Assembly: GCA_016182915.1 (NCBI GenBank) | Contig: JACPFP010000002.1 | Span: 155,188 to 219,187 of the forward strand | Reading direction: 5' to 3' | DNA from: Candidatus Dojkabacteria bacterium | GTDB taxonomy: Bacteria > Patescibacteriota > Dojkabacteria > SC72 | DNA length: 64,000 bases | Part shown: positions 18,608 to 36,204 of the stretch, in pieces | How the letters are laid out: every line of letters begins with the position of its first letter | Position numbering within the stretch: the first letter of the stretch is position 1 | Notes under the pieces: generated by a model | What the model was told of the DNA's origin: nothing | Seen by the model: the letters and a program-made list of their open reading frames with translations, nothing else | The model's database searches: none | Made by a program: the position numbers and the translations under genes

Positions 18608-18638
18608 AAAAATCAAAATTAATAGTATATTTAATAGT

Positions 18639-18809: not shown

Positions 18810-18819
18810 AGATATTTAC

Positions 18820-19374
18820 ATGCCTAAGAAAGTTAAAAAAGAGAATTTGAATCTGAAGTGGTACGTACTCAACGTCCAGTCAGGACACGAAAGTAGTATC
18901 GCAAAAGCAATACAGCAAAGAGTTGAAGCGACTGGCAGTGAAGACAAGATGTCTGAAATTCTAATCCCTACACAGAAAAAGATTGTTGTTAAAGGTGGAA
19001 AACAGAGTATCAAGGAAGAGAGAATCTTCCCGGGATATGTACTAATCAAGATGGATTTAAGCGACGAGACATGGAGTTTGATTGCAAATACAGAAGGAGT
19101 GAAGGGATTTGTTAAAGTTGATAAGTTCCCACGACCACTTCCAGAAAACGAAGTAAAAGCAATTATGAAATTCATGGAAGTTGAGCAACCAACATATCAA
19201 ACCTCATTCAGTGTTGGAGAAGCAGTTAAGATCAATGATGGTGCATTTGCAGACTTCATTGGAAGTGTACAGAGAATCGATGAATCGAAGGGGAAGATTA
19301 CAGTTTTGATATCATTTTTGGGCCGAGAAGCACCTGTTGAATTAGAATTCACCCAGGTAAGTAAAATTAAGTAA
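18820..19374 (+). CDS. nusG: transcription termination/antitermination factor NusG
   Basis: NGN domain (KWYVLNVQSGHE) and a C-terminal KOW domain. Confidence 0.95.
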   Translation: MPKKVKKENLNLKWYVLNVQSGHESSIAKAIQQRVEATGSEDKMSEILIPTQKKIVVKGGKQSIKEERIFPGYVLIKMDLSDETWSLIANTEGVKGFVKVDKFPRPLPENEVKAIMKFMEVEQPTYQTSFSVGEAVKINDGAFADFIGSVQRIDESKGKITVLISFLGREAPVELEFTQVSKIK

Positions 19375-19391
19375 GTTTATATTAAATAGTA

Positions 19392-19814
19392 ATGGCAAAA
19401 AAAGTAACAAAAGTTCTAAAACTACTCATCCCAGCAGGTGCAGCAACACCAGCTCCTCCAATTGGACCAACCCTTGCACCATATGGAATCAGTACACAAC
19501 AGTTCTGCCAGGAGTTCAACGAAAAAACAAGAGAAAATAATGGAGTTTTAACACCAGTAGTACTAACAATCTACGAGGATAGAACATTCACATTTATTAC
19601 AAAAACTCCACCTACATCGGAACTAATCAGAAGAGAGATAAAGATACCTAAGGGTTCAGCAAGTCCAAACCTACAGAAAGTTGGTAAGATTACGAAAGAT
19701 CAGGTAAAGAAGATTGCAGAAGCAAAGATGATAGACCTAAACACAACAAACTTAGACCAAGCCGTTAAGATTATAGAAGGAACGGCAAGACAGATGGGTG
19801 TTGAAGTAATTTAA
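19392..19814 (+). CDS. rplK: 50S ribosomal protein L11
   Basis: L11 family sequence (…PAPPIGPTLAPYGI…). Confidence 0.95.
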   Translation: MAKKVTKVLKLLIPAGAATPAPPIGPTLAPYGISTQQFCQEFNEKTRENNGVLTPVVLTIYEDRTFTFITKTPPTSELIRREIKIPKGSASPNLQKVGKITKDQVKKIAEAKMIDLNTTNLDQAVKIIEGTARQMGVEVI

Positions 19815-21047: not shown

Positions 21048-21572
21048 ATGTCTAAGAATAGAACTCAGAAATCCGAGTTACTTTCGCAGTATACAGACCT
21101 ACTCAAAAATAACGGAGGTTATCTTTTGGTAGACACAAGCGGTCTAGATACTCCAACTGTAACCAAATTTAAGATTGCTTTGAAAGAATCAGGTTCAGAA
21201 TATACAGTTATAAAGAACTCTGTTTTCAAAATTGCTCTCCAAGAAGCAAATCAACCTGTACAAACACAGGATTTTGATGGACAGACAGCACTAATCAGCT
21301 ATAAAGAAGATCCTACAACCGCAGCAAAATTGATAAAGGCACTACAAGCAGAAACTGAGAAGTTTGGAGCAAAGCTGGGAACAATAAATGGTGCCTATAT
21401 TGATGCCTCCCAAGTAATGCAACTTGCAGAGATACCTTCAAGAGAGGTTCTTCTTGCAAAACTACTCGGATCTATGGTCTCCCCACTCTCAGGAGTTATG
21501 AATGCTATAACAGGTAATGTGAGAGGATTCACTATGGTACTTAAGCAGCTTTCTGAAAAAGAAGCTAAGTAA
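21048..21572 (+). CDS. rplJ: 50S ribosomal protein L10
   Basis: 174 aa with L10 family sequence. Located upstream of rplL. Confidence 0.9.
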   Translation: MSKNRTQKSELLSQYTDLLKNNGGYLLVDTSGLDTPTVTKFKIALKESGSEYTVIKNSVFKIALQEANQPVQTQDFDGQTALISYKEDPTTAAKLIKALQAETEKFGAKLGTINGAYIDASQVMQLAEIPSREVLLAKLLGSMVSPLSGVMNAITGNVRGFTMVLKQLSEKEAK

Positions 21573-21602
21573 TAAATATTTAATTTAATTACACAACTAG
21601 CA

Positions 21603-22004
21603 ATGGAAGAGAAAAATTTACCAAAGCTATCAGCAGATGCACAGAAAGTTCTTGAAGCTGTAGAGAAAATGACAGTTTTAGAACTTGCAGATCTTGTCAA
21701 AGTAATGGAAGACAAGTTCGGAGTAAGCGCAGCCGCTCCAGTAGCCGTTGCAGCAGCTCCAGCAGCAGCAGCAGAGGAAGTTGAAGAGAAAACAATGTTT
21801 AACATTGTTCTTCAAGATGCAGGTGCAAACAAGATCAGCGTGATCAAGGTTGTAAGAGAGTTGACAGAACTAGGTCTCAAAGAGGCTAAAGATCTCGTTG
21901 ACGCAGGTGCAGGATCCGTTCTTAAGGAGAATGTACAGAAAGATGCCGCTGAGGAAGCAAAGAAGAAGTTTGAGGAAGCAGGTGCTAAGGTTGAACTTAA
22001 GTAG
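21603..22004 (+). CDS. rplL: 50S ribosomal protein L7/L12
   Basis: Ala-rich hinge ([17 protein letters not shown]) and a C-terminal L12 domain. Confidence 0.95.
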
Positions 22005-22028
22005 TTAGCTTTTCAAATGGAAATTGAA

Positions 22029-22054
22029 AGACCGGAGCAATCCGGTCTTTTTTT
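22029..22054 (+). terminator. rho-independent terminator after rplL
   Basis: AGACCGGA-gcaa-TCCGGTCT hairpin followed by TTTTTT. Confidence 0.8.
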
Positions 22055-22171
22055 ACCTCCTAAAATGATTGAAAATATGCCCCTTAAATGCTATAATTAC
22101 GACATAAATTCCTCACTATGCCCTAGGTACTTTTACCTAGAAAAATCAAATTAAATTAGAATTTTTAAAAT

Positions 22172-22828
22172 ATGACAGAACTAACCCAGTGGCTACTCTC
22201 TCATGGTATTTCTATGGCAGTTTTGGAGATATTAGTATTTGTGCCTATCCTCGCCACCCTTGTAAACCTATCCCGATATTTTATTGGGTTTAAATCCTTT
22301 GGAATCTATGCACCAATAATATTAGGTCTTTCATATAGATATACAGGCCTTAGATACGGTTTAATCATAACTCTTCTTGTGGTACTCTCCTCTCTCATTG
22401 GATACTCCATAATGCGAAGGATACGTATGCACTATCTAGCGAGAGTCGCTATAAACTACTTAATTGTTGCCATTATTCTTCTTTTCGGAATTGCGGGATT
22501 AGACAGTCTTGAAATTTTAGGCTTCACAAACTTTGAAAGCATCAATCCCCTCGCCCTTATCTCCATTGCCGCCCTTTCTGACTTCTTTATAAAAATGTAT
22601 GTAAAAAAGAGCATTGCTGCTACAGTTAGAGTTCTCCTCGAAACCGTTCTAATTTCTGTAATAGGATGGGTGTTGATCTCTTCTGAAACAATAATCGGTT
22701 TTATGTTGAGTAATCTATGGATGTTAGGTGCAATACTTCTCTTCAATCTTCTGATTGGTAGATATACAGGACTACGAATCAAAGAATATTTTAGATTCAG
22801 CTTCGTCGTCAAAAATGACAATAAATGA
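22172..22828 (+). CDS. polytopic (approx. 6-7 TM) membrane protein, partner of RimK-like ATP-grasp
   Basis: 218 aa, almost entirely hydrophobic helices. 14-bp overlap with the downstream ATP-grasp gene suggests translational coupling. Confidence 0.6.
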   Translation: MTELTQWLLSHGISMAVLEILVFVPILATLVNLSRYFIGFKSFGIYAPIILGLSYRYTGLRYGLIITLLVVLSSLIGYSIMRRIRMHYLARVAINYLIVAIILLFGIAGLDSLEILGFTNFESINPLALISIAALSDFFIKMYVKKSIAATVRVLLETVLISVIGWVLISSETIIGFMLSNLWMLGAILLFNLLIGRYTGLRIKEYFRFSFVVKNDNK

Positions 22829-24305
22829 ACTAATCCGTTTAAATAAAGAGGTTCTGGGAATTAATAGACGAAACCAGGCTTTCGTTCGTGAGTTTAATCC
22901 TCTATCTGCGAAAGTAATTGCAGATAACAAGATTATAACCAAAAGGGTTTTAGCGAAGGTTGGGATAAAAAGCGCCGAACTATATAAGGTTATTAGAACG
23001 AAAAAGCAGTTGGAATTCCTTGATTGGGATTCAATACCAAATAGTTTTGTTCTTAAACCAAACCAAGGTACAGGTGGTAATGGAATTGTTGTGTTCTACG
23101 GCAAGAAGAAGGGAAAGTACGAATGGATTAGACCAAACGGTACAACAATGGATCAGAAAGACCTGATCCTACATATTGAAAATATCCTTGATGGGAGATT
23201 TTCAATGGGTAATAGGAACGATCTCGCGATCATCGAAGAAAGAATCAAAACAGACAGCACATTAAAACCCTTCACATATAAGGGAGTCCCTGATGTTAGA
23301 GTCATAGTTTTCAATAAGATTCCACTTCTGGCAATGCTAAGACTTCCAACCAAACGATCAAACGGTACTGCAAACCTTCACTCAGGAGCTATATGTGTAG
23401 GAATCGATATTGCCTCTGGAATTACAAGAGAAGGAATGTACTTAAAAAAGAGCCCTATCATTGAGGATACCTATACAAGCACAGATACCACCCTTGATCT
23501 TGAAGATAATATCCCTCTAATAGGTATTCAAATCCCATATTGGAATGAAATACTTGAGATCGCTGTTAAATCCCAGCAGGCAAGCGGATTAGGTTATATA
23601 GGTGTAGATATCGCTTTAGACAAAGAGAAGGGCCCTATGGTGCTTGAAATCAACGCAAGGCCGGGCTTAGGTATACAGGTAGCAAACAAAATCGGATTAA
23701 GAGCCAGATTAGAACGAGTAAAAGGGATTGAAGTTAAGAGTTTGAGACATGGAGTAAGACTTGCAAAGAATATTTTCGGAGGCGAGGTTGAGGAGGAGAT
23801 TGAAAATATCAGCGGTAAGACAGTTGTTAACCTCATAGAAAAGATTCTCCTTTTCCATAAACCAGAGATAGAGATGTCTAAAAAGAAACAGAAAAAAATC
23901 CTTGCTAAAAAGGAAGTCGTTAAAGCAATGCTTGATACCGGAATAATAACCTCACGTATTGACTGGGGAATAGCATCAAGAATTGGATACTTTAAGGCCT
24001 TGGACTTCTTTAGAAAGCTTGGAATTCCTGAGACCTTCCCAACACTCAAAGATGCACAGGATTATATTGATAAAACTGGAAGTGAAAACATGCTGCATCC
24101 TGAAATTATCAGACTCGCTAAAATCAGTGATGAGACTGGAAACCACATCCTTCCCGTAGTAGAGGTAGAGATAAAAATTGCGGGTGAGGTTAAAAAGGTT
24201 GAAATGGTAGTTAGCAGACAACAAGCCATCATATACCCAGTCCTGATAGGGAGAAAAGAGCTGAATAATTACCTTATAGATACAAGTAAAACATTTACAA
24301 ATTAA
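22815..24305 (+). CDS. RimK-like ATP-grasp amidoligase fused to C-terminal retropepsin-like (DTG) aspartic peptidase domain
   Basis: ATG at 22815 (MTINELIRLNKEVLGINRRNQ...). ATP-grasp core motifs (VLKPNQGTGGNGIVV, VRVIVFNKIPLLAMLRLPT, GVDIALDKEKGPMVLEINARPG). The C-terminal ~150 aa carry a DTG motif (AMLDTGIITSRID) in a retropepsin-like context. Confidence 0.7.
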   Translation: MTINELIRLNKEVLGINRRNQAFVREFNPLSAKVIADNKIITKRVLAKVGIKSAELYKVIRTKKQLEFLDWDSIPNSFVLKPNQGTGGNGIVVFYGKKKGKYEWIRPNGTTMDQKDLILHIENILDGRFSMGNRNDLAIIEERIKTDSTLKPFTYKGVPDVRVIVFNKIPLLAMLRLPTKRSNGTANLHSGAICVGIDIASGITREGMYLKKSPIIEDTYTSTDTTLDLEDNIPLIGIQIPYWNEILEIAVKSQQASGLGYIGVDIALDKEKGPMVLEINARPGLGIQVANKIGLRARLERVKGIEVKSLRHGVRLAKNIFGGEVEEEIENISGKTVVNLIEKILLFHKPEIEMSKKKQKKILAKKEVVKAMLDTGIITSRIDWGIASRIGYFKALDFFRKLGIPETFPTLKDAQDYIDKTGSENMLHPEIIRLAKISDETGNHILPVVEVEIKIAGEVKKVEMVVSRQQAIIYPVLIGRKELNNYLIDTSKTFTN

Positions 24306-24328: not shown

Positions 24329-25303
24329 ATGGAAAAAGATTTTTTGAAAATAGCCGGGAATGTACATCTCGCATACTACATTGAAGCTGCTGATATCCTT
24401 GGAATCAAGTATGAAGTTATATTTAGAAACCTAACCGCTCGTTTTGAACATCAAGGTAAACACTGGTTTATAAACAATACCGCCCTACCAGTAAATAACG
24501 CACCCAGCTCAAGATTAGCCAGAGGAAAACACTTTGCAAGTAGAATTCTCGATTTAGCAGGTATCCCAGTACCCCAACAAGCTAGTGTTGAGAATGTAGA
24601 GGAAGCAATCTCTTTCTTTAACGAGCATAATGAGGTTGTAGTTAAGCCTTCTCAAAATCTTGGAGGAAAGGGTATATCAATCCTTCCGGCCAATGCAGAG
24701 GATCTATCCAAGGCATACGAGTATGCTAAAGGCTACGATAAACATGGAAAGGTATTAATTGAGAAGTATATCCACGGAGATAATTATAGACTTCTAGTAG
24801 TCGGAGACACAGTCGTTGGTGTTGTAAGGAGGCTTCCTGCCACTATCACAGGCAGTGGTAGTTCAACTATAAAACAGCTAATTGAAGAGAAAAATATAGA
24901 GAGAAAGGCCCGAATGCTCATGCCAATACCTATAGATGAAGAAACAGTTAAACACCTTCAACATAAAGGGTTTACACTAGACACAGTTCTTCCTGCCGGC
25001 GTGATAACAACAGTCAGATCAAACACAAACCTAACAACAGGTGGTACAACTGAAGAGTGCAGTGAGATTGTCCACCCATACTATAAAGATATTGCAGTAA
25101 AGACAATAAAAGCTCTGGATTTGGAGTTCGCAGGAATAGATTTGATTACCAAAGATATCACTACCCCATCCGAATGTGCCGTTAACGAAGTGAATTACAA
25201 CCCAGGACTAAGACTTCACTATAAAGTAGATAAAGGAGAGATTAAAAAGGTTGCCATTCCTATTATGGAATATATTAGAGATCGCTATGCGAAAACGAAG
25301 TAG
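24329..25303 (+). CDS. stand-alone cyanophycin-synthetase-like (CphA G-domain-like) ATP-grasp ligase
   Basis: YRLLVVGDTVVGVVRRLPATITGSGSSTIKQLIEE..., TNLTTGG and AGIDLITKDITTP resemble CphA ATP-grasp motifs. No Mur-ligase domain is present. Confidence 0.65.
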   Translation: MEKDFLKIAGNVHLAYYIEAADILGIKYEVIFRNLTARFEHQGKHWFINNTALPVNNAPSSRLARGKHFASRILDLAGIPVPQQASVENVEEAISFFNEHNEVVVKPSQNLGGKGISILPANAEDLSKAYEYAKGYDKHGKVLIEKYIHGDNYRLLVVGDTVVGVVRRLPATITGSGSSTIKQLIEEKNIERKARMLMPIPIDEETVKHLQHKGFTLDTVLPAGVITTVRSNTNLTTGGTTEECSEIVHPYYKDIAVKTIKALDLEFAGIDLITKDITTPSECAVNEVNYNPGLRLHYKVDKGEIKKVAIPIMEYIRDRYAKTK

Positions 25304-25362: not shown

Positions 25363-26340
25363 ATGCACAACAACTATTTCGAAGTAAGCGCTGAAAACAA
25401 CTTTGAACTTGGATTACAATTAGGAAAACTGTTTAGAGAAAATTTAAATGAGACCTTAAAGGAGGCTCATCTCAATCCTAACTGGGATCAAGTGGTTGAA
25501 CAATCTTCAATGTATCTCAAGAAGACAAAAGATTTGTTCCCACACCTTATTGAAGAACTCAAAGGATATGCTAAAGGAGCAGACGTCGATTTTATGAATT
25601 TATGGGCGCTTAGCCTTGAGGATGAATTATACTTTGAAGAAAAGTGTTCAACAGTGATTACAAACAATGGCATGTTAGTTGGACACAACGAAGACTATAA
25701 GGATGCAGAAGAAAAAGTCTGTATACTTAAAAAAACGATTAAAGGAAAAACAATCCTCGAACTATACTATCTACATACCCTAGGCGGGAATTCAATCTCT
25801 ATAAACTCAAACGGATATATCCACGCAATTGACTCACTTTCACAATCAGATCGTAAAGTCGGAATTCCCAAGAATGTGATTGCAAGATGGTTCTCTGAAA
25901 CATCATCTCCTTCGGATGATTTTCAAAAATTATCTACTTTAGATAGGTCTTCAGGATTTTGTCATAATATAGTAAACATCACAGGAGAAGTAATAACTAT
26001 TGAATCTACTGCCACAAAACAACTGATTGAGACCATAGAAACTCCTTTCGTACATACAAACCACTATTTAACAGACTTAAAGACTTTTGAAGCCAACGAT
26101 AATTCAACCTGCACATTTGAAAGATTCAAAAGTGCAAGAGAAAATATTAAAGAGCAAATGAAAGTTACAGAGATGCAATCACTCCTTTCATTGAATAATA
26201 ATGGTCCTCAGGCTAGCCTCTTTAACGAAAGAACAGTTGGAAGAATGATTATAGATAATACAGAAAGATTGGCGTATATATGGCTAGGTAGAGAAAAGGA
26301 GAAAGGTTGGATTAAATATAATCTCAATTTTATTGTATGA
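25363..26340 (+). CDS. Ntn-hydrolase-like protein (tentatively peptidase C45/acyltransferase-like)
   Basis: A candidate nucleophile Cys in EEKCSTVITNNGMLVGHNEDY is reminiscent of the C45/linear-amide hydrolase family. The family call is tentative. Confidence 0.4.
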   Translation: MHNNYFEVSAENNFELGLQLGKLFRENLNETLKEAHLNPNWDQVVEQSSMYLKKTKDLFPHLIEELKGYAKGADVDFMNLWALSLEDELYFEEKCSTVITNNGMLVGHNEDYKDAEEKVCILKKTIKGKTILELYYLHTLGGNSISINSNGYIHAIDSLSQSDRKVGIPKNVIARWFSETSSPSDDFQKLSTLDRSSGFCHNIVNITGEVITIESTATKQLIETIETPFVHTNHYLTDLKTFEANDNSTCTFERFKSARENIKEQMKVTEMQSLLSLNNNGPQASLFNERTVGRMIIDNTERLAYIWLGREKEKGWIKYNLNFIV

Positions 26341-28024
26341 TAGATATATGAAAACACAGGTACTCCAAGGTGCAAACCTTATAAATACAGTGACAACTGT
26401 AAATATAACCCTTGATACAACTCCAAAAACAGAGTTTATAGAAGAAATCCAGAAGATTCATCCACTCTTTTTAGATGAGTTTATGGTGGAAGGTAAGACG
26501 ATAAGTATACAAACCAAACTCCCCCATCTATGGAAGGAAGCAGCAGTTGCCCTAAATAACTACTCCAACGGAGAATGGAGCTATGACCTAACAAAGTCAT
26601 TCCTATATGAGACACTAATCAAAAAACAAATTCTCTCTATGTCCACCATTCCAATACTGAGAGCAGCCCACGAACTAGGTTATGAAACAACCCAATATTT
26701 TATAGAGGAGGGCTTCACACCTGAAGGAGTTCTTAAAAAGTATAATAGATACTATGCAATTGGCGTAGGACAGGAAACTGAAACTATGATCTCAATAGCA
26801 AGCAGTGGTGATTCCAACCTTGCAAAGATGATTCAGGAGGATAAGTGGCTCACCAATATTATGCTTGACAGATTAAAACTCCCTATTGCTAAATGGGAAC
26901 TAATCCCAAGCAAGGATAGCCTTAAGGAGCTACACGAGAAGTATAGAAAGCCATATGTAATCAAACCTGTCGGTCTCACAGGCGGACACGGCGTTACAAC
27001 AAACATAGAAAGCCTTGATCAAGCTAAATCTGCCTACGATGTTGCAAATAAATCTATTGAATCAAAGGAGAGAAAAGATTGGCAGAAAAAGATAATGATA
27101 CAGGAACAAGTTTCTGGAGAAGACTACAGGCTTCTCGTTATCAATGGAGTCTTGGAGATTGTAACAAAAAGAATACCTGCCTTCGTAGTCGGTAACGGAA
27201 GCTCAACCATAGAAGAGTTAATAGTAGAAACTAATAAAGACCCACGAAGAGACACTTCCCTCCCAACCCATATCTTAAAACCAATCGTTATAGACGACCA
27301 GCTTAAAAGCTTCCTTAAAGAACAGGATCTCAATCTAAAGCATATCCCTAAAGCAGACGAGAAAGTATATGTAAGAAAGGTAGCAAGTATGAGTCAGGGA
27401 GGAATTACTGAAGACTTCACAGACCAGGTAAGTAAACAGATTAGATATATTGTAGAATCCCTTGCTAAATCCCTGCACGCCTATGCACTAGGGGTAGATA
27501 TCATCTGCCAGGACATATCAAAACCATTAACAATGGAAAACGGGTCAATCATTGAGTGCAACACAATGCCAGAATCATATCTTAATGCCTTCCCTGTAAT
27601 TGGAAAACAGTATCCTAATATAGGAAAAATCGTAGTAGAGGGATTAATCGGAAAGAAACCTAAAACAAAGAAATATGTATATATTGGAAAAAATATGAAG
27701 AAATTTGAGACTTTCCTTGCATTAAATACGGATGAGTCGGAAGATAGAGTTGGAATATATAGAAACGGAGAAGTAATTATTAATAACGAAGTTATAAACA
27801 GGTCGGTAGAAACTTGGAGAGCTATAGAGGCTCTTAAACTTAACTCATCCCTCTCTGTAATAGTCCTCCACTATCTATCGTTTGATGAGGTAGAAGAGTA
27901 TGGACTGGGTTTTGACTATACAGATGCAGTGGTTATCGAAAAAGAGCTTGAATCAACGAAACAATATTCCACAATACAAGGTCTTTCAAACATGGGAGTT
28001 GTTACAAAGGTGGAGACTATTTAG
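26333..28024 (+). CDS. cyanophycin-synthetase-like protein with N-domain plus ATP-grasp G-domain, lacking Mur-ligase M-domain
   Basis: DYRLLVINGVLEIVTKRIPAFVVGNGSSTIEELIVETNKDPRRDTS... matches the CphA G-domain GDGxSTIxELI...DPRRG pattern. An ~200-aa N-terminal domain is also present. The protein is 563 aa against ~900 aa for CphA. The track start is TTG at 26333, with an alternative ATG at 26348. Confidence 0.7.
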   Translation: MYDRYMKTQVLQGANLINTVTTVNITLDTTPKTEFIEEIQKIHPLFLDEFMVEGKTISIQTKLPHLWKEAAVALNNYSNGEWSYDLTKSFLYETLIKKQILSMSTIPILRAAHELGYETTQYFIEEGFTPEGVLKKYNRYYAIGVGQETETMISIASSGDSNLAKMIQEDKWLTNIMLDRLKLPIAKWELIPSKDSLKELHEKYRKPYVIKPVGLTGGHGVTTNIESLDQAKSAYDVANKSIESKERKDWQKKIMIQEQVSGEDYRLLVINGVLEIVTKRIPAFVVGNGSSTIEELIVETNKDPRRDTSLPTHILKPIVIDDQLKSFLKEQDLNLKHIPKADEKVYVRKVASMSQGGITEDFTDQVSKQIRYIVESLAKSLHAYALGVDIICQDISKPLTMENGSIIECNTMPESYLNAFPVIGKQYPNIGKIVVEGLIGKKPKTKKYVYIGKNMKKFETFLALNTDESEDRVGIYRNGEVIINNEVINRSVETWRAIEALKLNSSLSVIVLHYLSFDEVEEYGLGFDYTDAVVIEKELESTKQYSTIQGLSNMGVVTKVETI

Positions 28025-29408
28025 AAACCCTCTTCTTCTTAATCATCCCCGAAACTTTTAAGCTTCCGAATATTAGCGCAGCAAGGCCAACGGTAATTCC
28101 TGCAAACATAAGAGTTTTTTTAGGAACCTTATTTATCATTCCTATAGGATTTTTATTATTTTCCCTTTTGTATTCATCAAACTTCTTCAAAAGATAACTC
28201 TGACCAGGGAAATATGGGAGTCTATTGATCATATCCCTCACTACCCTCCTATTACTTACCCTCTTTCCCTTTACACTCACATACTGTGCATATATATCGT
28301 ATGTGCGTTTTGCAATATCTGACCAGTCCCAGTTGTCAACTTTATGCCTTGCTCTTTTACAAATATCTGTATAATCATTCTGTGAAAGATCGGCAATCTT
28401 TCTAACACTTTTCGCGAACTCTTTTGGAGATGCCTTCCTATCTATCCATATACCCACAGAGCTATCAACAAGCTCGTCAATCGTCTCGTTTGAAAGCCCT
28501 ACGATAGGTTTTCCAGCAGCCAACGCCTCGATAACCGACAAAGCCTGCACCTCAGCAATAGAGGCTGATACGAAAATATGTGATTTTTCCAAATACCCCG
28601 GTATTTTATCCGGGCTAACTCCATCTATAATCTCTACATTTCTATACTTTGAAGCCATCTTCCTGAAACTTTTCTCGTAATCCTCGAAAAGGAAACGTCC
28701 AATTAGAGTCAATCTGAAGTTCTTTGGGAAATATTTCATAACTTTCAAGAGATATTCCTGATTTTTTCTCTTTGAAATTGATCCTACGAAGATGAGATTT
28801 CTTTCCTTTTTTTTCTGAGATTGTAGTTCCAAAGAATTTAATCTTTCAAGAAACCTACCATTCGGAACAATATGCATATTTCCTGTGTATCCATAGTTAC
28901 GAAGTTCATTGGAAGCCACCTGGTTTAAAGCTATGACAGCAGTGCAATTCTTTAGATAATCCTGAAAATACTGCTTAAAGATCATCTCATTCATCATCTT
29001 GTAAACAAAGGAATCTGCTGATACATCAAAGAAACTTGCTATTTTGGTTGGGAGATAGTGAGAGGTATAGAAATATGGGATATTGTTATTGACAGCCCAA
29101 ATCTGCCCAATGAACGGTGCTAACCATCCACTATGCGAATGAACAATATCAGGTTTAAAGCTATCCAGAAAATCAAAGAAGAATTGGACTGTGTTAGGAG
29201 TGAATACTCCTAGCTCTCCACTTTCATAATCTCCACCCTGTAGTGTAACCTTAAGCATCCCATCCTCTTTATATATCCTGTTCTCTGTACCTGTGAAAAC
29301 AAGTGCTGTCTCTGCATATTCTGACATTGCCTGTGAAATTTCCATTGCAACCCTCGTCTCCCCTCCTAGGGTCTCTTCGGTTCCTGCAGCTAAATAGACA
29401 ACTTTCAT
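28017..29408 (-). CDS. GT4 family glycosyltransferase with C-terminal TM anchor
   Basis: GT-B fold motifs (EVQALSVIEALAAGKPIV) and a C-terminal hydrophobic helix LMFAGITVGLAALIFGSL. Confidence 0.85.
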   Translation of the reverse strand: MKVVYLAAGTEETLGGETRVAMEISQAMSEYAETALVFTGTENRIYKEDGMLKVTLQGGDYESGELGVFTPNTVQFFFDFLDSFKPDIVHSHSGWLAPFIGQIWAVNNNIPYFYTSHYLPTKIASFFDVSADSFVYKMMNEMIFKQYFQDYLKNCTAVIALNQVASNELRNYGYTGNMHIVPNGRFLERLNSLELQSQKKKERNLIFVGSISKRKNQEYLLKVMKYFPKNFRLTLIGRFLFEDYEKSFRKMASKYRNVEIIDGVSPDKIPGYLEKSHIFVSASIAEVQALSVIEALAAGKPIVGLSNETIDELVDSSVGIWIDRKASPKEFAKSVRKIADLSQNDYTDICKRARHKVDNWDWSDIAKRTYDIYAQYVSVKGKRVSNRRVVRDMINRLPYFPGQSYLLKKFDEYKRENNKNPIGMINKVPKKTLMFAGITVGLAALIFGSLKVSGMIKKKRVSK

Positions 29409-30235
29409 TACTTAGTATTAATAAACTCTTTAATAACATTGTATGATTTCTCCGGCTCAAAGGAAAGATGTCTGTGATTAAGAGCATTTATAATAACGGG
29501 CTTAACATGGAGCATATCTGCAATCTCCTGGGTAAACTGCTTGAAATACCACGGTTCATTAGCATTATATATAACCAAACTCTCCCCTTTGAAGTTATTA
29601 AGTCCCTTCTGATCTAGATCCTTCAGTGTAAAAACCGGTGTCATACTACTCTCAACGTCCCCATTCATTGCGTCTAAAAATATGAGATTTATATAGTACC
29701 TTGCCTTAGACAGATACAATCTCGAAGTGAGAAGCTCCAAAGCATATATAAGTTTAATATTAAATCTTAAGATAGCCAAAGGTATCCTTAACTTCCTAAA
29801 ACCATCGTAAACAGAAGCATTAAGACTTAATCGGGACTTCGTTTCAAAGATATTCTTCCTGCTGTGAAAACCCGATACAACAATATTCTTGCTTGGATTA
29901 ATATACCCCATTGATATAGCATGCAAGATGAATGTAACACCAAGAGAATACCCTGCTACACCGTAATCCTTAAATTCAAAAGAGTTTATGAATTTGGAGA
30001 TAAAAAGAACATATGAATCAAAATCTTTGACCTTAAGCAACTGTTTTGACTTACTCCCCCATCCAGGAAGATTTGCTCGTATAACTCTAATACCATCATC
30101 TTTCATAAGTTTGGTAATCCCATCAAAAGCAATACTTGATGATCCCCAAGGCGGTATAAAAAAGAGCGGGAATCCCTCCCCCTCATCTAGGTATGTAATC
30201 TCAATTCCATCAATCTTTCTACTTAGGTACTCCAT
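29408..30235 (-). CDS. alpha/beta hydrolase fold protein
   Basis: GxSxG nucleophile elbow (GYSLG). 275 aa, cotranscribed with the GT4 gene. Confidence 0.75.
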   Translation of the reverse strand: MEYLSRKIDGIEITYLDEGEGFPLFFIPPWGSSSIAFDGITKLMKDDGIRVIRANLPGWGSKSKQLLKVKDFDSYVLFISKFINSFEFKDYGVAGYSLGVTFILHAISMGYINPSKNIVVSGFHSRKNIFETKSRLSLNASVYDGFRKLRIPLAILRFNIKLIYALELLTSRLYLSKARYYINLIFLDAMNGDVESSMTPVFTLKDLDQKGLNNFKGESLVIYNANEPWYFKQFTQEIADMLHVKPVIINALNHRHLSFEPEKSYNVIKEFINTK

Positions 30236-30322
30236 ATTCCTCAGTATATCACAACATTAACAGTTCATCAGGATACTGCTATAATGACAATTATAGCTAT
30301 TTAATATAACTAAACATACCTA

Positions 30323-31264
30323 GTGAAATACCTAATCCTTGATAAAAAGCAGAGAATACATATAGAGAATAAGTACTCATATGTACTAACTAGAATAGTC
30401 GAAGAACTGGAAAAGATGGGAGCAGAATATAAAGTGGCATACAATGACGAGATTGAAGTAGCATTTATAGAAGGAAAGACTACAATAAGTGTACAGGGTG
30501 AAAATATAGAGAATTTTTCTCACATAATGTTCAGAGGAATGAGGTTAGACAGGCAGATTGAATATGAAACACGAAAGATCATTGTAGACTATATTGAGCA
30601 ATATAATATCTCAAACCCAAGCAAAGCCATTAAGGTTCAAAATCTTAAAGCCATAAAAAGGACTCATTTCTACGATAAGATATTCATAACCCACCTATGT
30701 GTACAGAATGGAGTTGCAATAATGAACACACTTTATAGGCCTATGGGTAACTACTCCGTGGAACATTCGCCTCTTAAATACCCTATGATTGTAAAACAGT
30801 ACGCAGGAGAGAACGATATAAGAGTGATTGAAGGAAAGGAGACCGTTAAAAAGAATGTCTTTCTCGTAAATAGCCCTGAGGAATTCCAGCAGGAGCACCT
30901 TAGAGATAGAAATCTCTCTGAATACATAATTCAGGAATTCATACCCTCAGGTGAAGACTTCAGAGTATTCGTTTCCAAAGGAAAAGCCCATTCAGGTTTT
31001 GGAAGAAAAGCTACCACCAACTTCATGACTGTAAATGCCGGTGAATATGCCAAACTCGACTTAGAGAAAAGGTCAGATCTCAAAGAATTTGCCCAGAAGG
31101 TTTCCTCAGTTTTCGGAGCAGACTTCATCGCAGTTGATATGATGATGAAAAATGGAAAACCCGTGCTACAAGAAATTAGCTTCAATCCAGGCTTTAAAGC
31201 CTTTGAAACCAAAACCGATGGTGAGTTTATTAATATGGCAAAGGTAATAATCGAATCTCTTTAA
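30323..31264 (+). CDS. ATP-grasp family ligase (RimK/GshB-like)
   Basis: GTG start. ATP-grasp features (DFRVFVSKGK..., ADFIAVDMMMKNGKPVLQEISFNPG). Confidence 0.7.
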   Translation: MKYLILDKKQRIHIENKYSYVLTRIVEELEKMGAEYKVAYNDEIEVAFIEGKTTISVQGENIENFSHIMFRGMRLDRQIEYETRKIIVDYIEQYNISNPSKAIKVQNLKAIKRTHFYDKIFITHLCVQNGVAIMNTLYRPMGNYSVEHSPLKYPMIVKQYAGENDIRVIEGKETVKKNVFLVNSPEEFQQEHLRDRNLSEYIIQEFIPSGEDFRVFVSKGKAHSGFGRKATTNFMTVNAGEYAKLDLEKRSDLKEFAQKVSSVFGADFIAVDMMMKNGKPVLQEISFNPGFKAFETKTDGEFINMAKVIIESL

Positions 31265-32418
31265 ATCCCTAATCTCTTGAAAATCTGGTTAACCTTCTCA
31301 GGATCTAATACTAGTTTTGCCTTTGGAATAAGGCCATCTTCAACCCAGGAGACCTGCTTCATACTAATCTTTCCAGCATACAGCTTTTCGTAGAGGGAGG
31401 AATCCTTCGCAATTGCCTTCCTAACTCTCCTATATCCCCTAAAATACACGACATCCTTATAATATAGTCCTGGTAGTGATGTATCGCCTAACCCCCTTTT
31501 AACGCGGTATGCGAAGTCAAATGCGAGATTCTTAGCAAGAAACGCTGTCATTGCATTATATAGGTCCCTGAAACTTACAGCCTCCCCCCAATACAATAAC
31601 CAACTAAAGGTTGCTTTCCTCTTCAAGGCATCAAAAGTGAGGACTTTCATAAGTTCCTCATTATATGTTGCCAATCCCTCTTCAATATCCTGATATTCCG
31701 GCAAATTGGATTTATATAGAACGGGTACTCCAGAGTGGATTCCGTTATATGACCTTAATACATGCGTCCCAATCTCATGAACAATCGATTTCCTAAGGTC
31801 GATTTTGGAGCGGGAGATATCCCCAGAAAGCAGTACTTCCTTCCTCTTTACCCCTACTTTCATAGCCTCATCTGCAATTCTTCCAGACTTAGCAACGGTC
31901 CAATCAGAAAACCCCAATTCACCTAGAAATTTAGTCATAATCCTCTCTATTTCAGCATATTCATACTCTCTTCCCTCTTTCTTCTGTTCTACAAGGTCGT
32001 AGTTTGAAACTTTTCCCCTTAAAACGAGAGATGCATTTTTGAATAGTCTTGCTGATGGTCTACCAAACCTCTTCCTAGAGATCTCTGTAATTAACCGATT
32101 ATCCCCTACTGCATTAAGCATATCGTTAACCTCTGATTTAGATTCTATGAGTTTCAGATAGAATTCTGAGATTCTTGGATCAACGTCAGAAATACTGGTT
32201 ATATCAGCTAACTCACGAAGGAGAGAGGAATTAACATTCTTAACAGGCTTATATTTAAAGTTAGGACTGTATGTCTCCGATTCAATAAACTTCTGCTTCT
32301 CCTCATCCAAGTTTATAGGCGTAAATACGTATGAAGTTGGGAGTTTAAGAAGATCTAGTTTCGCAACAACCTCTTCCTGTGTAACAACTCTTTTTCCCCT
32401 TCTACTAAATATAAACAC
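31261..32418 (-). CDS. DUF1704/MATCAP-like QEGLA-motif putative metallocarboxypeptidase
   Basis: EEGLATY (a QEGLA-like motif) and an HExxxH-type motif VHEIGTHVL. 4-bp convergent overlap with the ATP-grasp gene. Confidence 0.65.
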   Translation of the reverse strand: MFIFSRRGKRVVTQEEVVAKLDLLKLPTSYVFTPINLDEEKQKFIESETYSPNFKYKPVKNVNSSLLRELADITSISDVDPRISEFYLKLIESKSEVNDMLNAVGDNRLITEISRKRFGRPSARLFKNASLVLRGKVSNYDLVEQKKEGREYEYAEIERIMTKFLGELGFSDWTVAKSGRIADEAMKVGVKRKEVLLSGDISRSKIDLRKSIVHEIGTHVLRSYNGIHSGVPVLYKSNLPEYQDIEEGLATYNEELMKVLTFDALKRKATFSWLLYWGEAVSFRDLYNAMTAFLAKNLAFDFAYRVKRGLGDTSLPGLYYKDVVYFRGYRRVRKAIAKDSSLYEKLYAGKISMKQVSWVEDGLIPKAKLVLDPEKVNQIFKRLGI

Positions 32419-32464: not shown

Positions 32465-33721
32465 CTACCAATCTAAATCAGAGAGGAAGGCTCCAAGAAG
32501 AAACCAAACCCAGGGTGTCATGAAAAAATCGTATGTTATATTTCCGACGACGATGATTGAAAAGAGGCCCAATATAAGCGGAGACTTCCTTTTAAGTAAC
32601 TCAAGACCTAGGGAAATCACTACAAAACCAAAGGATAGAATCCCAATAATTCCCCCTTCTGCAAGCATTTTGGCATATACGGAATGTGGGGTAGCAAACT
32701 GGACCCTACTATCTATATTTTCCCTGTAATATTGAGGGAAATTCCCTATTCCAATTCCTAACACAGGATGTTTAAGAAAGATTTTAATAGATTGAATCCA
32801 GTAGTTTATATGTTCATTCGCTGAAAAATCGGCAAGGGTCAACCTTGTTAAAGCAAGAGGAAGGAATGAGGAATACACACGGCCTTTAACACCATCCTTA
32901 CGCATTATGAATCTATGACCATAGTAGACAATGAATCCTACTATTAATGCTAAATAGCCCGTTCTTGATGCCGTTAGAAGAATCATAGCAAGAGATAAAA
33001 TAAGAACAGATGTCGATAGAAGCATACTCTTTCTCTTATTAATCAGATCTACAGAAAAAACTGAAATCATAGCAAGAAAAACAGCAAATACATTAGTATC
33101 AATCATTAATGAACTAGGCCTGAGAAACAGTCCATTATCGGCAGTCCTAATATTGAATGCTGAGGCAGAAACAAAACCGCCTTTATCAAATACGCTAATA
33201 AACCATCCTAAATCCTGATTCATTCGATAATCCACATACTGCGTTAATCCAACAATAATCAGGATGAGAGCAGAAAAAAGTAATCCTTTCTTAAAAGTAT
33301 CACTGTCGCTCTTTTTAGGTAGTACAATTCCGACAAGGAATAGAGAGATGAGTATAGAATAATATCCTAACCCCATAATACTCTCATTAAGATTGTAAGA
33401 GGTCAGTAAAGATATAGCGGAAGCTAGGAGAAAGACACCTAAAGAGATAAATACAACCTTATACCGGATGAAAGCGGTGACAACAGCATCGAAAAGAGTA
33501 CGGAGACTTTTTCGGCAATATATCAAGTAGATTGCTAATAGAACCAAATATACAACTATCCATAATACTTTAGTCAGAGTTCTTGGACTTATCTCTCCTT
33601 CTGCTAAAATATCAACTATAAATGAGAGCCTTCCGGAAATAAGAATAAATAGAAATACGGATAGTATATATCCCATATTATGATGATATCTCTTTAGTAA
33701 ATACTCTATCTCCACTTGCAA
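32465..33721 (-). CDS. O-antigen ligase/polymerase-like (Wzy_C) polytopic membrane protein
   Basis: >10 TM helices. LTASRTGYLALIVG and HSVYAKMLAEGGIIG match the Wzy_C family R/H motifs. The true start is probably the internal Met near 33676. Confidence 0.6.
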   Translation of the reverse strand: MQVEIEYLLKRYHHNMGYILSVFLFILISGRLSFIVDILAEGEISPRTLTKVLWIVVYLVLLAIYLIYCRKSLRTLFDAVVTAFIRYKVVFISLGVFLLASAISLLTSYNLNESIMGLGYYSILISLFLVGIVLPKKSDSDTFKKGLLFSALILIIVGLTQYVDYRMNQDLGWFISVFDKGGFVSASAFNIRTADNGLFLRPSSLMIDTNVFAVFLAMISVFSVDLINKRKSMLLSTSVLILSLAMILLTASRTGYLALIVGFIVYYGHRFIMRKDGVKGRVYSSFLPLALTRLTLADFSANEHINYWIQSIKIFLKHPVLGIGIGNFPQYYRENIDSRVQFATPHSVYAKMLAEGGIIGILSFGFVVISLGLELLKRKSPLILGLFSIIVVGNITYDFFMTPWVWFLLGAFLSDLDW

Positions 33722-34691
33722 TCAGTTCAAGAGCCATACCAGTACCCTTAGCCACACAGAACATAGGTTCATCTGCAACATGAGCAGGTACACCCGTTGC
33801 CTTGGAGAAGAGCTTATCCAGATTTTTCAAGAGTGACGTTCCTCCGCTCATAACCATCCCTCTATCGATTATATCAGCGGCTAACTCTGGAGGAGTTTTC
33901 TCCAAAACCTCTTTTATAGCGCCAATAATCTTTGATAGTGCAAATTTCAAAGCCTCCGCAATCTCATTTGAATCAATCTTAATTGATTTTGGCATTCCCC
34001 CTGCTACATCCCTACCCTTTATCTCCATCTCCTTAGGATTCTGAACCTTAATTGCGGAACCAATTTTCATCTTAATACTCTCTGCTGTCTGCTCTCCAAT
34101 CAAGATTCCTCTCTTCCTTCTCATGTATGCAATTATGGATTCATTTAGGGCATCTCCAGCAACGCGTAGAGAGTTGAATTCAACAATACCGTCAAGTGAT
34201 ATAACTGCAATCTCTGCTGTACCACCACCAAGGTTAACAATCATATTTCCAGAAGAGGTTTCAATAGGTAGGCCTGCACCAAGGGATGCCAGAAGAGGTT
34301 CAGGAAGAAGACTTACTTTTCTCGCCCCTGCTCCCATAGCAGCCTTTAATACAGCTCTTTCCTCAACAGATGTAATTCCTGCAGGCACACTAATCATTAC
34401 TTCAGGCTTGAAGAACTTTGATGTTCCCAATGCCTTATTTAAAAAGTATTTTAACAACGCCTCTGTTACTCTGGAATCTGCAATTACACCGCTTCTAAGA
34501 GGCCTTTTAGCAACGATATTATCTGGAGTTTTACCTATCATTTCTTTTGCCTGCTGCCCTACCGCTATCACTGTGAACTTATTCACATCGATAGCTACAA
34601 CTGTAGGCTCCATAAGGACAATACCTTCTCCCTCAACAAAAACTATTGAGTTAGCAGTTCCTAGATCTATTCCTACCTTTTTTCCAAACAT
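33678..34691 (-). CDS. second MreB-like actin homolog (paralog)
   Basis: VGIDLGTANSIVFV..., NLGGGTAEIAVISL and MSGGTSLLKNL motifs. Confidence 0.85.
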   Translation of the reverse strand: MFGKKVGIDLGTANSIVFVEGEGIVLMEPTVVAIDVNKFTVIAVGQQAKEMIGKTPDNIVAKRPLRSGVIADSRVTEALLKYFLNKALGTSKFFKPEVMISVPAGITSVEERAVLKAAMGAGARKVSLLPEPLLASLGAGLPIETSSGNMIVNLGGGTAEIAVISLDGIVEFNSLRVAGDALNESIIAYMRRKRGILIGEQTAESIKMKIGSAIKVQNPKEMEIKGRDVAGGMPKSIKIDSNEIAEALKFALSKIIGAIKEVLEKTPPELAADIIDRGMVMSGGTSLLKNLDKLFSKATGVPAHVADEPMFCVAKGTGMALELIASGDRVFTKEISS

Positions 34692-34731: not shown

Positions 34732-36204
34732 TTAGTATTTAATCAACATAGCTTCTTTCATCTGATCAGCCACTCCTCTAGCTATCCCCCTTACCTTCTT
34801 ACTCCCTTCGAGCGCCTTTCTTAGTAATTCTTCCTTCATACCTTCAGCAACCTTTCTCCTCTCTCTTATTGGGGTTAGGAACTCATTCATTACTTTGAAA
34901 AGAATCTCTTTAACCTCAACATCCCCTATCCTCCCTTCTCTATATCTCCTTTTTAACTCTTCTACCTGCTGCTTATCCTCATTAAAAAGGTCGTGGTATG
35001 CAAAGGCGATATTACCTTCGACAGTTCCCTTATCCGTTGCGCTCTTCCTATTTGGATCTGTATATACACTAAAGACCTTCTTTCTAAGGACCTCTTCACT
35101 ATCTGAAAGGTATATAGCATTATTTAAACTCTTCCCCATCTTCGAGTTCCCATCAATACCTGGAACATTGGTTGCAACTCCATACAGTCCTTCAGGCTGG
35201 TGTAAGTACTTCACTTTATATGTACTATTAAACTTCCTTACAATCTCTCTTGTATCTTCAATCATAGGGGCCTGATCCTTTCCTACGGGAACCAAATCCG
35301 CGTTAACACACAATATATCTGCAGCCTGGTGAATAGGATATACAAAGAAACCAAGTGGCGTGGACTCCTCCATATTATTCTGTTTAATCTCAGTTTTAAT
35401 AGTTGGGTTATGCATAATCTGCTGAACAGAGGTGAAGTTTGCCAAATACATAAATATTTCATGTACCTCAGGTACTTCAGACTGAATATACACAGTACTC
35501 TTATCGAAATCTATTCCTACAGCATAGTAGTCACAGAGAAGTTCAAGAATACTTTCTTTAACCATCTGAGGATTATCTGCATTGTCACTAAGGGCATGGA
35601 TATTTGCAATGAGGATAAACTGCTCGTACTCATCTTGTAAGGCAACCCTATTTTTAAGAGTGCCCATATAATGACCTACATGCATCTTTCCAGTTGGCCT
35701 ATCACCAGTTAAGATCCTCTTCTTTCCACTTACAGAACGCTCTGATGGCGCGGTGAATTTTCCAATAGTCCCTCTTGTGATAGTTAAAAGATCCTTTGGA
35801 GCAAGTTGAATATCAGTAAATTCATCTCCAGCACCTCCATTAATTACCTTTCTCTCCAGTAGTGATTCATCCATATAGTATTTTAGTGATGGATGGTAAA
35901 CCCCAACTGCGCCAACGGTAAATCCGAAATTGTTCTTTACCTCTTCAGGGGTTGCCATGTTTAAACTCTTAACTCCCATCAGCTTCTTCAGTTCATTGGA
36001 TAGGATTTTCCTGTCATCCCTTCTATGCACACCAACGAATCCTTTTTCAGTTTTAAAGATAAGGGTAGAGACTCCATCCTCGAATGATATATTTACCGCT
36101 CTAACTCCTTCTTCAACTGTGAATACGGCTCCATGCTTAACAAAGCTTACTTCCTTTAAGCCTAACTCCTTAACCCTATTTTGTAATACCTCTAAGTTAC
36201 TCAT
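34732..36204 (-). CDS. trpS: tryptophanyl-tRNA synthetase with N-terminal YbaK/ProX-like deacylase domain
   Basis: C-terminal class I core (TGDRPTGKMHVGHYMG HIGH region; KMGKS). The N-terminal ~170 aa resemble the YbaK trans-editing domain (TLIFKTEKGFVGV..., GFTVGAVGVY, VINGGAGD). Confidence 0.85.
   Translation of the reverse strand: MSNLEVLQNRVKELGLKEVSFVKHGAVFTVEEGVRAVNISFEDGVSTLIFKTEKGFVGVHRRDDRKILSNELKKLMGVKSLNMATPEEVKNNFGFTVGAVGVYHPSLKYYMDESLLERKVINGGAGDEFTDIQLAPKDLLTITRGTIGKFTAPSERSVSGKKRILTGDRPTGKMHVGHYMGTLKNRVALQDEYEQFILIANIHALSDNADNPQMVKESILELLCDYYAVGIDFDKSTVYIQSEVPEVHEIFMYLANFTSVQQIMHNPTIKTEIKQNNMEESTPLGFFVYPIHQAADILCVNADLVPVGKDQAPMIEDTREIVRKFNSTYKVKYLHQPEGLYGVATNVPGIDGNSKMGKSLNNAIYLSDSEEVLRKKVFSVYTDPNRKSATDKGTVEGNIAFAYHDLFNEDKQQVEELKRRYREGRIGDVEVKEILFKVMNEFLTPIRERRKVAEGMKEELLRKALEGSKKVRGIARGVADQMKEAMLIKY

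Follow-up and report, generated by a model that had tools for sequence, protein, structure and literature searches.

A stretch of 64,000 nt from a member of Candidatus Dojkabacteria (hereafter the window, with positions counted from its first letter) carries at positions 30323-32418 a convergent gene pair for a RimK-fold ATP-grasp ligase, referred to below as the RimK-like protein, and for a peptidase of the DUF1704/MATCAP family. These two genes form the distal part of an Rlo-like gene cluster. The cluster comprises at least six genes and encodes four ATP-grasp ligases, two peptidases and one 7TM_transglut membrane protein. We put it at slightly above an even chance that this cluster is an Rlo-like peptide-ligase/peptidase system of Candidatus Dojkabacteria that builds and trims acidic peptide tails. 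A sequence-only reading of the same DNA had seen in the two convergent genes a coupled add/remove pair, an analogue of the tubulin tyrosination/detyrosination cycle, and had named the adjacent second MreB paralogue as candidate substrate. Overall, that interpretation is partly supported. The ATP-grasp gene and the DUF1704/MATCAP gene are present where it had placed them, and they overlap by 4 bp, with the same TTAA serving both stop codons.

The minus-strand protein matches PF08014 (MATCAP, formerly DUF1704) over residues 47-361 with an E-value of 4.1e-31 and 108.7 bits, the gathering score being 27. The match to the NCBIfam model TIGR02421 ('QEGLA') reaches 130.3 bits and stays under the equivalog cut-off of 338.65. 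The profile search proposed in the sequence-only reading is thus borne out for the first model and not for the second. Judged by profile, motifs and fold, the protein is a member of the wider PF08014 family that stands outside the TIGR02421 equivalog. The motifs VHEIGTH (H214, E215 and H219; HEIGTH at residues 214-219) and EEGLA (E246-A250), both of which had been recognized earlier, are invariant in 43 orthologues and match human MATCAP (KIAA0895L, 7z5g) residue by residue (E=1e-14). The title of the earlier reading had given the second motif as QEGLA; it is EEGLA, as the body of that text had it. HExxxH is the metal-binding and catalytic motif, and the downstream EEG provides the third ligand (PMC10499314). 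A basic block further downstream, R-V-KRG-L-G-DTSLPG...KD (R-x-KRG...KD), is likewise common to human MATCAP. The profile and motif matches of the convergent pair are not due to chance. The DUF1704 protein adopts the fold of the MATCAP catalytic domain, with M32 carboxypeptidases as its next structural relatives, and its orthologues conserve the basic residues R222, R305, K307, R308 and K321. From these basic residues and the structural kinship with M32 enzymes, carboxypeptidase activity on an acidic C-terminal tail is predicted. Because the DUF1704 sequence has no N-terminal hydrophobic signal and the domain is fused to a cytoplasmic ligase in Peregrinibacteria (see below), the enzyme most likely acts in the cytoplasm.

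The genes upstream of the pair on the plus strand are arranged in the order rplJ-rplL (21048-22004), 7TM_transglut, ATPgrasp_ST, 324-amino acid (aa) ligase, C45-family enzyme and 563-aa ligase (Table 1). The core of this arrangement resembles RloABC of Pseudomonas aeruginosa, which consists of a 7TM_transglut protein (RloB), an ATPgrasp_ST/TIGR02291-type ligase (RloC) and RloA, a peptidase that is retropepsin-like and carries a DTG motif, and in which the peptidase genetically antagonises the ligase and the membrane protein and has poly-Glu as in vitro substrate (PMC12239564). As in RloABC, the PF14397 ligase gene in the window adjoins the PF14402 7TM gene. The Dojkabacteria 7TM protein (218 aa), whose gene holds the same position in 53 Dojkabacteria loci, has PF14402 as its sole match and, unlike its counterpart in RloABC, lacks the inactive-transglutaminase ectodomain. 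The ATPgrasp_ST protein, whose true start is probably the ATG near 22815, scores 289.5 bits with TIGR02291, slightly under the cut-off of 314.2. Its C-terminal retropepsin-like domain (23890-24305) matches PF05618 with 25.9 bits and NF052264 (RloA3) with 36.2 bits, the cut-off of the latter being 210; in the DTG motif, D and T are each present in 59 of 59 orthologues and G in 57 of 59. While the peptidase of RloABC is separate and secreted, the Dojkabacteria domain is fused to the ligase and carries no signal peptide, so that it is cytoplasmic. The 324-aa ligase matches positions 204-471 of CphA, that is the G domain only, far from the cut-off of 850, and is kept in 64 loci. The 563-aa ligase, kept in 67 loci, does not reach the cut-off of 877. 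Neither protein has the full N-G-M architecture of CphA; only the region of about 185-572 is covered. Compared with RloABC, the Dojkabacteria cluster adds three ATP-grasp ligases and a MATCAP-like carboxypeptidase, and its host is a bacterium of the Candidate Phyla Radiation (CPR).

Table 1 Features of the Rlo-like cluster and its immediate surroundings in the window.
Feature	Position	Strand	Basis and remarks
7TM_transglut membrane protein, RloB-like; first cluster gene after rplJ-rplL	22172..22828	+	PF14402, 52.5 bits (gathering score 25)
ATPgrasp_ST ligase (RloC-like, alpha-L-glutamate-ligase-like) with C-terminal retropepsin-like domain (RloA/RimB-like)	22755..24305	+	PF14397, 218.4 bits
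324-aa ATP-grasp ligase, like the G domain of cyanophycin synthetase, GshAB and NAGGN synthetase	24329..25303	+	TIGR02068, 218.8 bits
C45-family autoproteolytic acyltransferase/hydrolase, subclade insertion	25363..26340	+	NF040521, 127.8 bits (cut-off 85); PF03417
Second cyanophycin-synthetase-like ATP-grasp ligase, 563 aa	26333..28024	+	NF010623, 230.5 bits; CphA positions 185-572
GT4 glycosyltransferase (28017-29408) and alpha/beta-hydrolase-like gene (29408-30235)	28017..30235	-	PF00534, PF13439
Promoter-like site before the RimK-like gene	30257..30285	+	TTAACA-17-TATAAT, 11/12 matches, extended -10 TG; consensus match only
RimK-fold ATP-grasp ligase (RimK-like protein)	30323..31264	+	313 aa; PF08443, TIGR00768, Foldseek
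TTAA common to both convergent stop codons	31261..31264		Direct sequence reading
DUF1704/MATCAP-family gluzincin, predicted cytoplasmic metallocarboxypeptidase	31261..32418	-	385 aa
Wzy_C/O-antigen-ligase-like membrane protein, between MreB2 and DUF1704	32465..33721	-	PF04932, 53.8 bits
MreB paralogue 2 (MreB2), taken as context of the cluster	33678..34691	-	PF06723, 437 bits

The RimK-like protein matches PF08443 (RimK ATP-grasp) with 39.2 bits at a gathering score of 21 and stays under the TIGR00768 cut-off (51.7 bits, cut-off 143.4). Its AlphaFold2 model has a confidence score (pLDDT) of 91.8, and the best Foldseek matches are the RimK structures 7qys, 7qyr, 5zk6 and 5zct (TM 0.71/0.76), with a RimK-RpsF complex among them and LysX/ArgX next. 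RimK, LysX and ArgX ligate onto the C-terminal Glu of a protein. The Mg site of the RimK-like protein (31172-31195, residues ~284-291) reads QEISFNPG and aligns with ..EVNSSPG of RimK. Among 72 orthologues, the position of the Asn in the canonical E-x-N is occupied by Ser in 68, by Gly in three and by Asn in one, while the cluster's other three ligases retain E-x-N, as read from their translations. Given this E-x-S site, the RimK-like protein may be an altered, non-catalytic or accessory ATP-grasp subunit. It is also the most divergent of the cluster enzymes (median identity 44%), and a homology search returned 107 matches, of which all those named for an organism belong to Dojkabacteria/WS6.

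The DUF1704 protein of the window is 100% identical to one from a Candidatus Dojkabacteria (WS6, CPR) genome. One genome per GTDB species was scanned (202 relatives), from which 80 loci were retrieved, and about 95% of these Dojkabacteria species loci keep the cluster; the named relatives are mostly Dojkabacteria/WS6, and many records in this 80-locus set are labelled uncultured Candidatus Saccharibacteria. The presence of insertions was scored among 84 loci and the spacing of the stop codons in 75. Gene order proved near-invariant and runs from rplL via the 7TM gene, the ATPgrasp_ST gene, the genes for the 324-aa and 563-aa ligases and the RimK-like gene to the convergent DUF1704 gene, MreB2, in part of the cases TrpRS, then PEGA and UvrA. 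When only loci with at least 1.3 kb beyond DUF1704 are counted, the RimK-like gene adjoins DUF1704 in 66 of 69 species loci. All five remaining cluster genes (7TM, ATPgrasp_ST, both CphA-like ligases and RimK-like) accompany DUF1704 in 43 of the 46 species loci with at least 7.5 kb beyond it. The -4 spacing of the convergent stop codons recurs in 27 of the 75 scored loci, and the gap is 2 bp or less in 49. No terminator was found between the convergent RimK-like and DUF1704 genes.

Outside the phylum, the MATCAP domain is joined to an ATP-grasp ligase in a single polypeptide. The polypeptides concerned are abundant and measure about 780-817 aa, with ATPgrasp_ST (up to 235 bits) as N-terminal and MATCAP as C-terminal domain. 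For one of them, P0249, this ATPgrasp_ST-MATCAP architecture is common to all of its top 120 relatives; those with a name are mostly from Candidatus Peregrinibacteria, and JGI calls such fusions 'alpha-L-glutamate ligase-like protein/TIGR02421 family'. In all three contexts inspected, a 7TM_transglut gene stands immediately ahead of the fusion gene, with PKD domains in two of them, and three of four metagenomic fusion loci have the same arrangement. The linker of the fusions (residues ~285-440 in P0249 and others) is homologous to the Dojkabacteria retropepsin-like domain. Its catalytic triad D-[TS]-[GS] is kept in 64 of 126 sequences; because the catalytic Asp is lost in 35 of the 126 (~28%), the alignment suggests that in the fusions MATCAP takes over the peptidase role of a decaying retropepsin. 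The combination of 7TM protein, RloC-type ligase and DUF1704 recurs in two CPR phyla, as separate genes in one and fused in the other. The fusions indicate the ATPgrasp_ST/RloC-type enzyme (22755-24305) as the evolutionary partner of DUF1704, and not specifically the overlapping RimK-like gene. The proposed coupling of ligase and peptidase therefore gains support from fusions and adjacencies, but its unit is a cluster of at least six genes, and the partner seen in fusions is of the RloC type.

ATP-grasp ligases also adjoin DUF1704 genes as separate neighbours. On a plasmid of Shinella (Alphaproteobacteria), genes for an FGase, a 617-aa QEGLA protein and a GshB-like ATP-grasp protein lie side by side, and on pSymB of Sinorhizobium an FGase gene adjoins the QEGLA gene. 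In the unclassified metagenomic lineage of locus L111 (5393-8081), DUF1704 is immediately followed by a co-directional RimK-like ligase with a canonical E-C-N site and then by an FGase-family amidohydrolase; in L132 (8001-9858), also unclassified, it is immediately followed by a co-directional RimK-like ligase that is likewise canonical (E-C-N). A separate observation concerns the L111 ligase, which scores 30 bits with the TTL profile (gathering score 20.1), although none of its stretches passes individually. Judging from these sequences, the functional tie of the MATCAP family to ATP-grasp ligases appears to be real but lineage-specific.

Several findings weigh against the view that the cluster forms one ligase/peptidase system. 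The flanking housekeeping genes UvrA, PEGA and rplL are as syntenic as the cluster itself, and conservation inside the phylum alone is therefore weak proof of a functional link. DUF1704 runs towards the ligase operon and is no part of its transcript; it lies behind MreB2 in the orientation of that gene, with which it is probably co-transcribed. One locus, L051, retains MreB2-DUF1704 with unrelated genes in the 8 kb downstream (11215-19455), namely those for a 385-aa protein without Pfam match, a HisKA_7TM histidine kinase and a YcaO/nitroreductase/C39-peptidase/ABC cluster resembling those for thiazole/oxazole-modified microcins (TOMM), a class of peptides made by the ribosome and modified after translation (RiPPs). 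Another locus, L034, is without the RimK-like gene. The E-x-S site casts doubt on the RimK-like protein as an active ligase. Finally, the tie to ligases thins out across the family. An exhaustive HMMER search of 1.84 billion representatives yielded 1735 DUF1704 clusters. A metagenome scan with a 24-sequence alignment as query gave a sample of 80 diverse DUF1704 loci, whose identity to a distant representative is 30-39%. These loci were tested for ATP-grasp genes with hidden Markov models made from the cluster ligases; many of the contigs are short. An ATP-grasp gene was present anywhere in the locus in six of the 80, and the DUF1704 family is therefore not generally tied to ligases. Co-occurrence of the pair across genomes, proposed earlier as a check, holds for Dojkabacteria species and fails for most of this diverse sample.

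Alternatively, DUF1704 may serve MreB2, and in the window's subclade also the Wzy_C-like protein, by processing a cell-shape or envelope protein or a peptidoglycan-related peptide, with the ligase operon as a mere neighbour. MreB2 lies upstream of DUF1704 in the same orientation in 71 of 71 loci, and about 12-90 bp separate the two genes wherever no insertion intervenes; the L051 locus has the two genes without adjoining ligases, the housekeeping genes nearby are no less syntenic, and rloA mutants of P. aeruginosa show cell-shape defects (PMC12239564). However, the Peregrinibacteria fusions and the ATP-grasp adjacencies in Alphaproteobacteria, L111 and L132 all occur without MreB nearby, and the tails of MreB2 are not acidic and do not conserve the last residue. 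We consider this explanation unlikely. Another one takes DUF1704 as a general cytoplasmic carboxypeptidase of housekeeping peptide catabolism that has no dedicated partner. It would fit the majority of diverse DUF1704 loci, which have no ATP-grasp neighbours, the solitary QEGLA gene of Pseudoalteromonas, and those DUF1704 genes that adjoin M29 or M42 aminopeptidases. A Pfam tally of 114 immediate neighbours of diverse DUF1704 genes gave RimK twice and 7TM_transglut three times; more common were TPR/AAA_16 STAND-like proteins (9-11), RNase HII (9), CorA (8), PTH2 (7) and M48 peptidases (7). Yet the domain has been recruited as a dedicated effector, as its fusions to ATPgrasp_ST and to STAND NTPases show, and its arrangement in Dojkabacteria is invariant, which makes a partnerless catabolic role very improbable. 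The STAND fusions are exemplified by P0178 (1216 aa) and P0180 (1265 aa), which combine TIR/NB-ARC (STAND NTPase), TPR and MATCAP domains; P0178 gives TIR hits in PADLOC. In some lineages, the MATCAP domain thus appears to serve as effector of STAND-type, conflict-like systems. For the six cluster proteins in the window, the PADLOC defence models returned no match, and a reading of the cluster as a defence system was rejected on this ground.

The second question is which amino acid is added and removed. The sequence-only reading had thought of tyrosine: a protein, for example MreB2, would receive a C-terminal Tyr or another aromatic residue from the RimK-like ligase and lose it again through DUF1704. 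This idea draws on the membership of DUF1704 in the family of the tubulin detyrosinase MATCAP, on the name 'tyrosine/phenylalanine carboxypeptidase domain-containing protein' that NCBI gives to some bacterial members, and on the fact that RimK/LysX-type ligases work on protein C-termini. The RimK-like protein (30323-31264) did not match the TTL-family profile PF03133, and the 50 best structural matches of its model include no TTL; the ATPgrasp_ST protein reaches only a sub-threshold 16 bits with PF03133. The characterised relatives of the cluster ligases all use Glu or Asp, the Mg site of the RimK-like protein is non-canonical, and the tails of MreB2 terminate in RR, IT or SS and show no conserved acceptor motif. 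Enzymes of the MATCAP family are, moreover, not confined to Tyr. TMCP1/2 (MATCAP1/2) and the Tetrahymena TMCP are deglutamylases that shorten polyglutamate; Nicot et al. asked which activity came first and noted that the Tetrahymena homologue is a deglutamylase that is unlikely to detyrosinate alpha-tubulin (PMC10499314). MATCAP1 takes off Tyr and then the penultimate Glu (bioRxiv 10.1101/2025.08.14.670257); in that report on MATCAP1 no description of the S1' pocket was found. A tyrosination cycle in Dojkabacteria is thus very improbable, and the proposed analogy is to that extent not supported.

Since no cluster ligase is TTL-like and every characterised relative acts on glutamate, an add/trim cycle of the glutamate (acidic) type is the best-supported option and would be more likely than tyrosination. 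RimK polyglutamylates RpsF, from which RimB trims Glu; the P. aeruginosa retropepsin RloA cleaves poly-Glu of at least eight residues, and deletion of the 7TM gene rloB or of the ATP-grasp gene rloC rescues the rloA1-3 mutant (PMC12239564). The FGase neighbours in other lineages again indicate glutamate chemistry.

The search for an acceptor within the window was guided by the expectation of an acidic tail. The C-termini of 83 MreB2 orthologues (..FNKEFRR, ..FNKSIT, ..KEISS) are not acidic and vary in the last residue, and MreB2 was rejected as the marked substrate for these reasons. What stands of its earlier nomination is that a paralogue does lie two genes upstream on the same strand. The canonical MreB (MreB1, 12114-13169), which is 43% identical to MreB2, ends in ..SWNEII. 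A conserved acceptor-like tail is also absent from L7/L12, the 7TM protein and the ligases, so that the conserved acidic tails looked for in the MreB paralogues and their neighbours were not found in MreB2 or in any of these proteins. The gene rpsF was not found in the 64-kb window. A scan of all open reading frames (ORFs) in the window for acidic C-termini gave one credible case, the plus-strand ORF 17699-18202. This unannotated ORF encodes 167 aa without Pfam match and ends in ..TTFDDTEE; tRNA genes and nusG flank it, and the cluster begins about 4 kb downstream.

Beside the observed folds, motifs, gene order, conservation and fusions, we infer that the ligases and DUF1704 share a substrate and that the residue is Glu or at least acidic. 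In the Rlo-like system proposed here, the cytoplasmic ATPgrasp_ST (RloC-type) ligase would work at the 7TM_transglut (RloB-type) membrane protein, assisted by the two cyanophycin-synthetase-G-like ligases and the RimK-fold protein. Together, the ligases would add residues to the C-terminal end of an alpha-linked peptide that is acidic and most likely rich in glutamate, with a free peptide, a protein tail or an envelope precursor as possible acceptor. As a part of the RloC-type polypeptide, the retropepsin-like domain would cut as an endopeptidase in the manner of RimB/RloA, while the DUF1704/MATCAP-like enzyme would trim residues singly from the C-terminus. Opposing ligases and peptidases could in this way set the length of the chain or erase it.

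If the acceptor were a surface polymer, the ligases could make the peptide that decorates a glycopeptide or teichuronopeptide-like molecule, the 7TM protein could export or anchor it, and DUF1704 could be a maturation or recycling peptidase. This overlaps with the scheme just described and differs solely in the acceptor. Pfam names PF14397 'sugar-transfer associated ATP-grasp', genes for GT4, alpha/beta-hydrolase and Wzy_C proteins are inserted in the cluster of the window's subclade, and MurJ, a Mur ligase and PKD-7TM proteins are neighbours at the Peregrinibacteria loci. The glycosyl genes are, however, not in the cluster in more than 90% of Dojkabacteria loci, and signal peptides are missing from DUF1704 as well as from the retropepsin-like domain, both of which occur fused to cytoplasmic ligases or encoded beside them. 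We give a surface glycopeptide a low probability. The insertions themselves are confined to few loci. The GT4 and alpha/beta-hydrolase genes, which part the RimK-like gene from the ligase operon, occur only in the window and L004-L007, and the subclade-specific Wzy_C-like gene only in about four other loci. The C45 gene sits between the two CphA-like ligase genes and was found elsewhere only in L005 and L006 among the 84 loci. Its product is a third peptidase-like enzyme in the window's version of the cluster.

Comparison with better known systems helps to place the Rlo-like cluster. RimK/RimB, with RimA, already constitutes a bacterial cycle in which alpha-linked Glu is added to and removed from a C-terminus, and it shares with the cluster a RimK-fold ATP-grasp protein and a cytoplasmic peptidase. 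Unlike RimK, the RimK-like protein of the window stays under the TIGR00768 cut-off and has Ser in place of the Mg-binding Asn, and the partner peptidase is a gluzincin exopeptidase and not only a retropepsin. With the tubulin code (TTL/TTLL versus MATCAP1/2, also called TMCP1/2, VASH and CCP) the cluster has in common the PF08014 peptidase family with its motifs and fold, and the logic of an ATP-grasp writer and a carboxypeptidase eraser on acidic C-terminal tails, which for Dojkabacteria is predicted. In contrast, the genome is without tubulin, and the cluster yielded no ligase of the TTL family; the bacterial protein consists of the catalytic domain only, unlike eukaryotic MATCAP, and its likely residue is Glu rather than Tyr. 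The Peregrinibacteria system has the same core of 7TM protein, RloC-type ligase and DUF1704, together with the same retropepsin-like middle domain, but consists of two genes, a single fused polypeptide and an upstream PKD-7TM_transglut protein, and lacks CphA-like and RimK-like ligases. Proteobacterial TIGR02421 proteins ('flavohemoglobin expression-modulating QEGLA motif protein') resemble the window protein in having a DUF1704 domain near an ATP-grasp protein. Their locus adds a glutamate-related amidohydrolase, whereas the Dojkabacteria cluster is without an FGase gene; the window protein has EEGLA instead of QEGLA and does not share the extra N-terminal region of about 260 aa of the rhizobial proteins.

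Some features of the surroundings deserve mention. In 38 loci (e.g., L002 and L008; window 21603-22828), the cluster comes right after rplJ-rplL and has the same orientation. The slot after rplJ-rplL is usually held by rpoB/rpoC. Co-transcription of the cluster with these ribosomal protein genes is possible. On the minus strand, a run of genes for TrpRS, MreB2, the Wzy_C-like protein and DUF1704 ends with the latter. The TrpRS (34732-36204, minus strand) is an unusual fusion with an N-terminal YbaK/tRNA_edit domain, and the 868-aa ArgRS (49857-52463, minus strand) is another, with an N-terminal B3_4 domain. Immediately upstream of the ArgRS gene, and co-oriented with it, are three tRNA-Arg genes (52485-52820). 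Rfam and tRNA scans of the window found tRNAs only, none of them within the cluster region. For a minus-strand ORF of 1620 aa (58486-63348), no Pfam family matches at E<=1e-3.

At the level of annotation the observation is not new, as databases already label such proteins DUF1704 or, in the case of some bacterial members at NCBI, 'tyrosine/phenylalanine carboxypeptidase domain-containing', and thus as DUF1704/MATCAP-like. Full-text literature searches on DUF1704/QEGLA returned nothing on function, and no experimental or descriptive paper on a bacterial ligase-DUF1704 system was found in a search that did not extend to the 2009 Iyer/Aravind amidoligase survey, where ATP-grasp/DUF1704 contexts would most probably have been described earlier. 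As erasers of the tubulin code, MATCAP/TMCP enzymes were discovered recently, and their relatives in prokaryotes have yet to be characterised. The present analysis ties the MATCAP domain to an RloC-type ligase and a 7TM partner in at least two CPR phyla, and in some lineages this domain apparently replaces a retropepsin of the type known to cleave polyglutamate. This offers a prediction, namely that bacterial DUF1704 proteins paired with RloC-type ligases would be C-terminal deglutamylases acting on the ligase products. They may thereby give biochemical access to the product of Rlo-type systems, whose effects in Pseudomonas concern antibiotic tolerance, biofilm formation and cell shape. On a bolder view, the Dojkabacteria cluster and the Peregrinibacteria fusions would represent a reversible C-terminal (poly)glutamylation 'tail code' on a cellular protein (MreB2, a ribosomal protein or one of envelope synthesis) and perhaps the prokaryotic source of the eukaryotic MATCAP eraser, in parallel to the proposed bacterial origin of TTL-type writers; as a whole we regard this as decidedly unlikely. 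The ligase/peptidase cluster is nonetheless a plausible evolutionary precursor of the eukaryotic writer/eraser logic and a possible prokaryotic root of the tubulin-code eraser.

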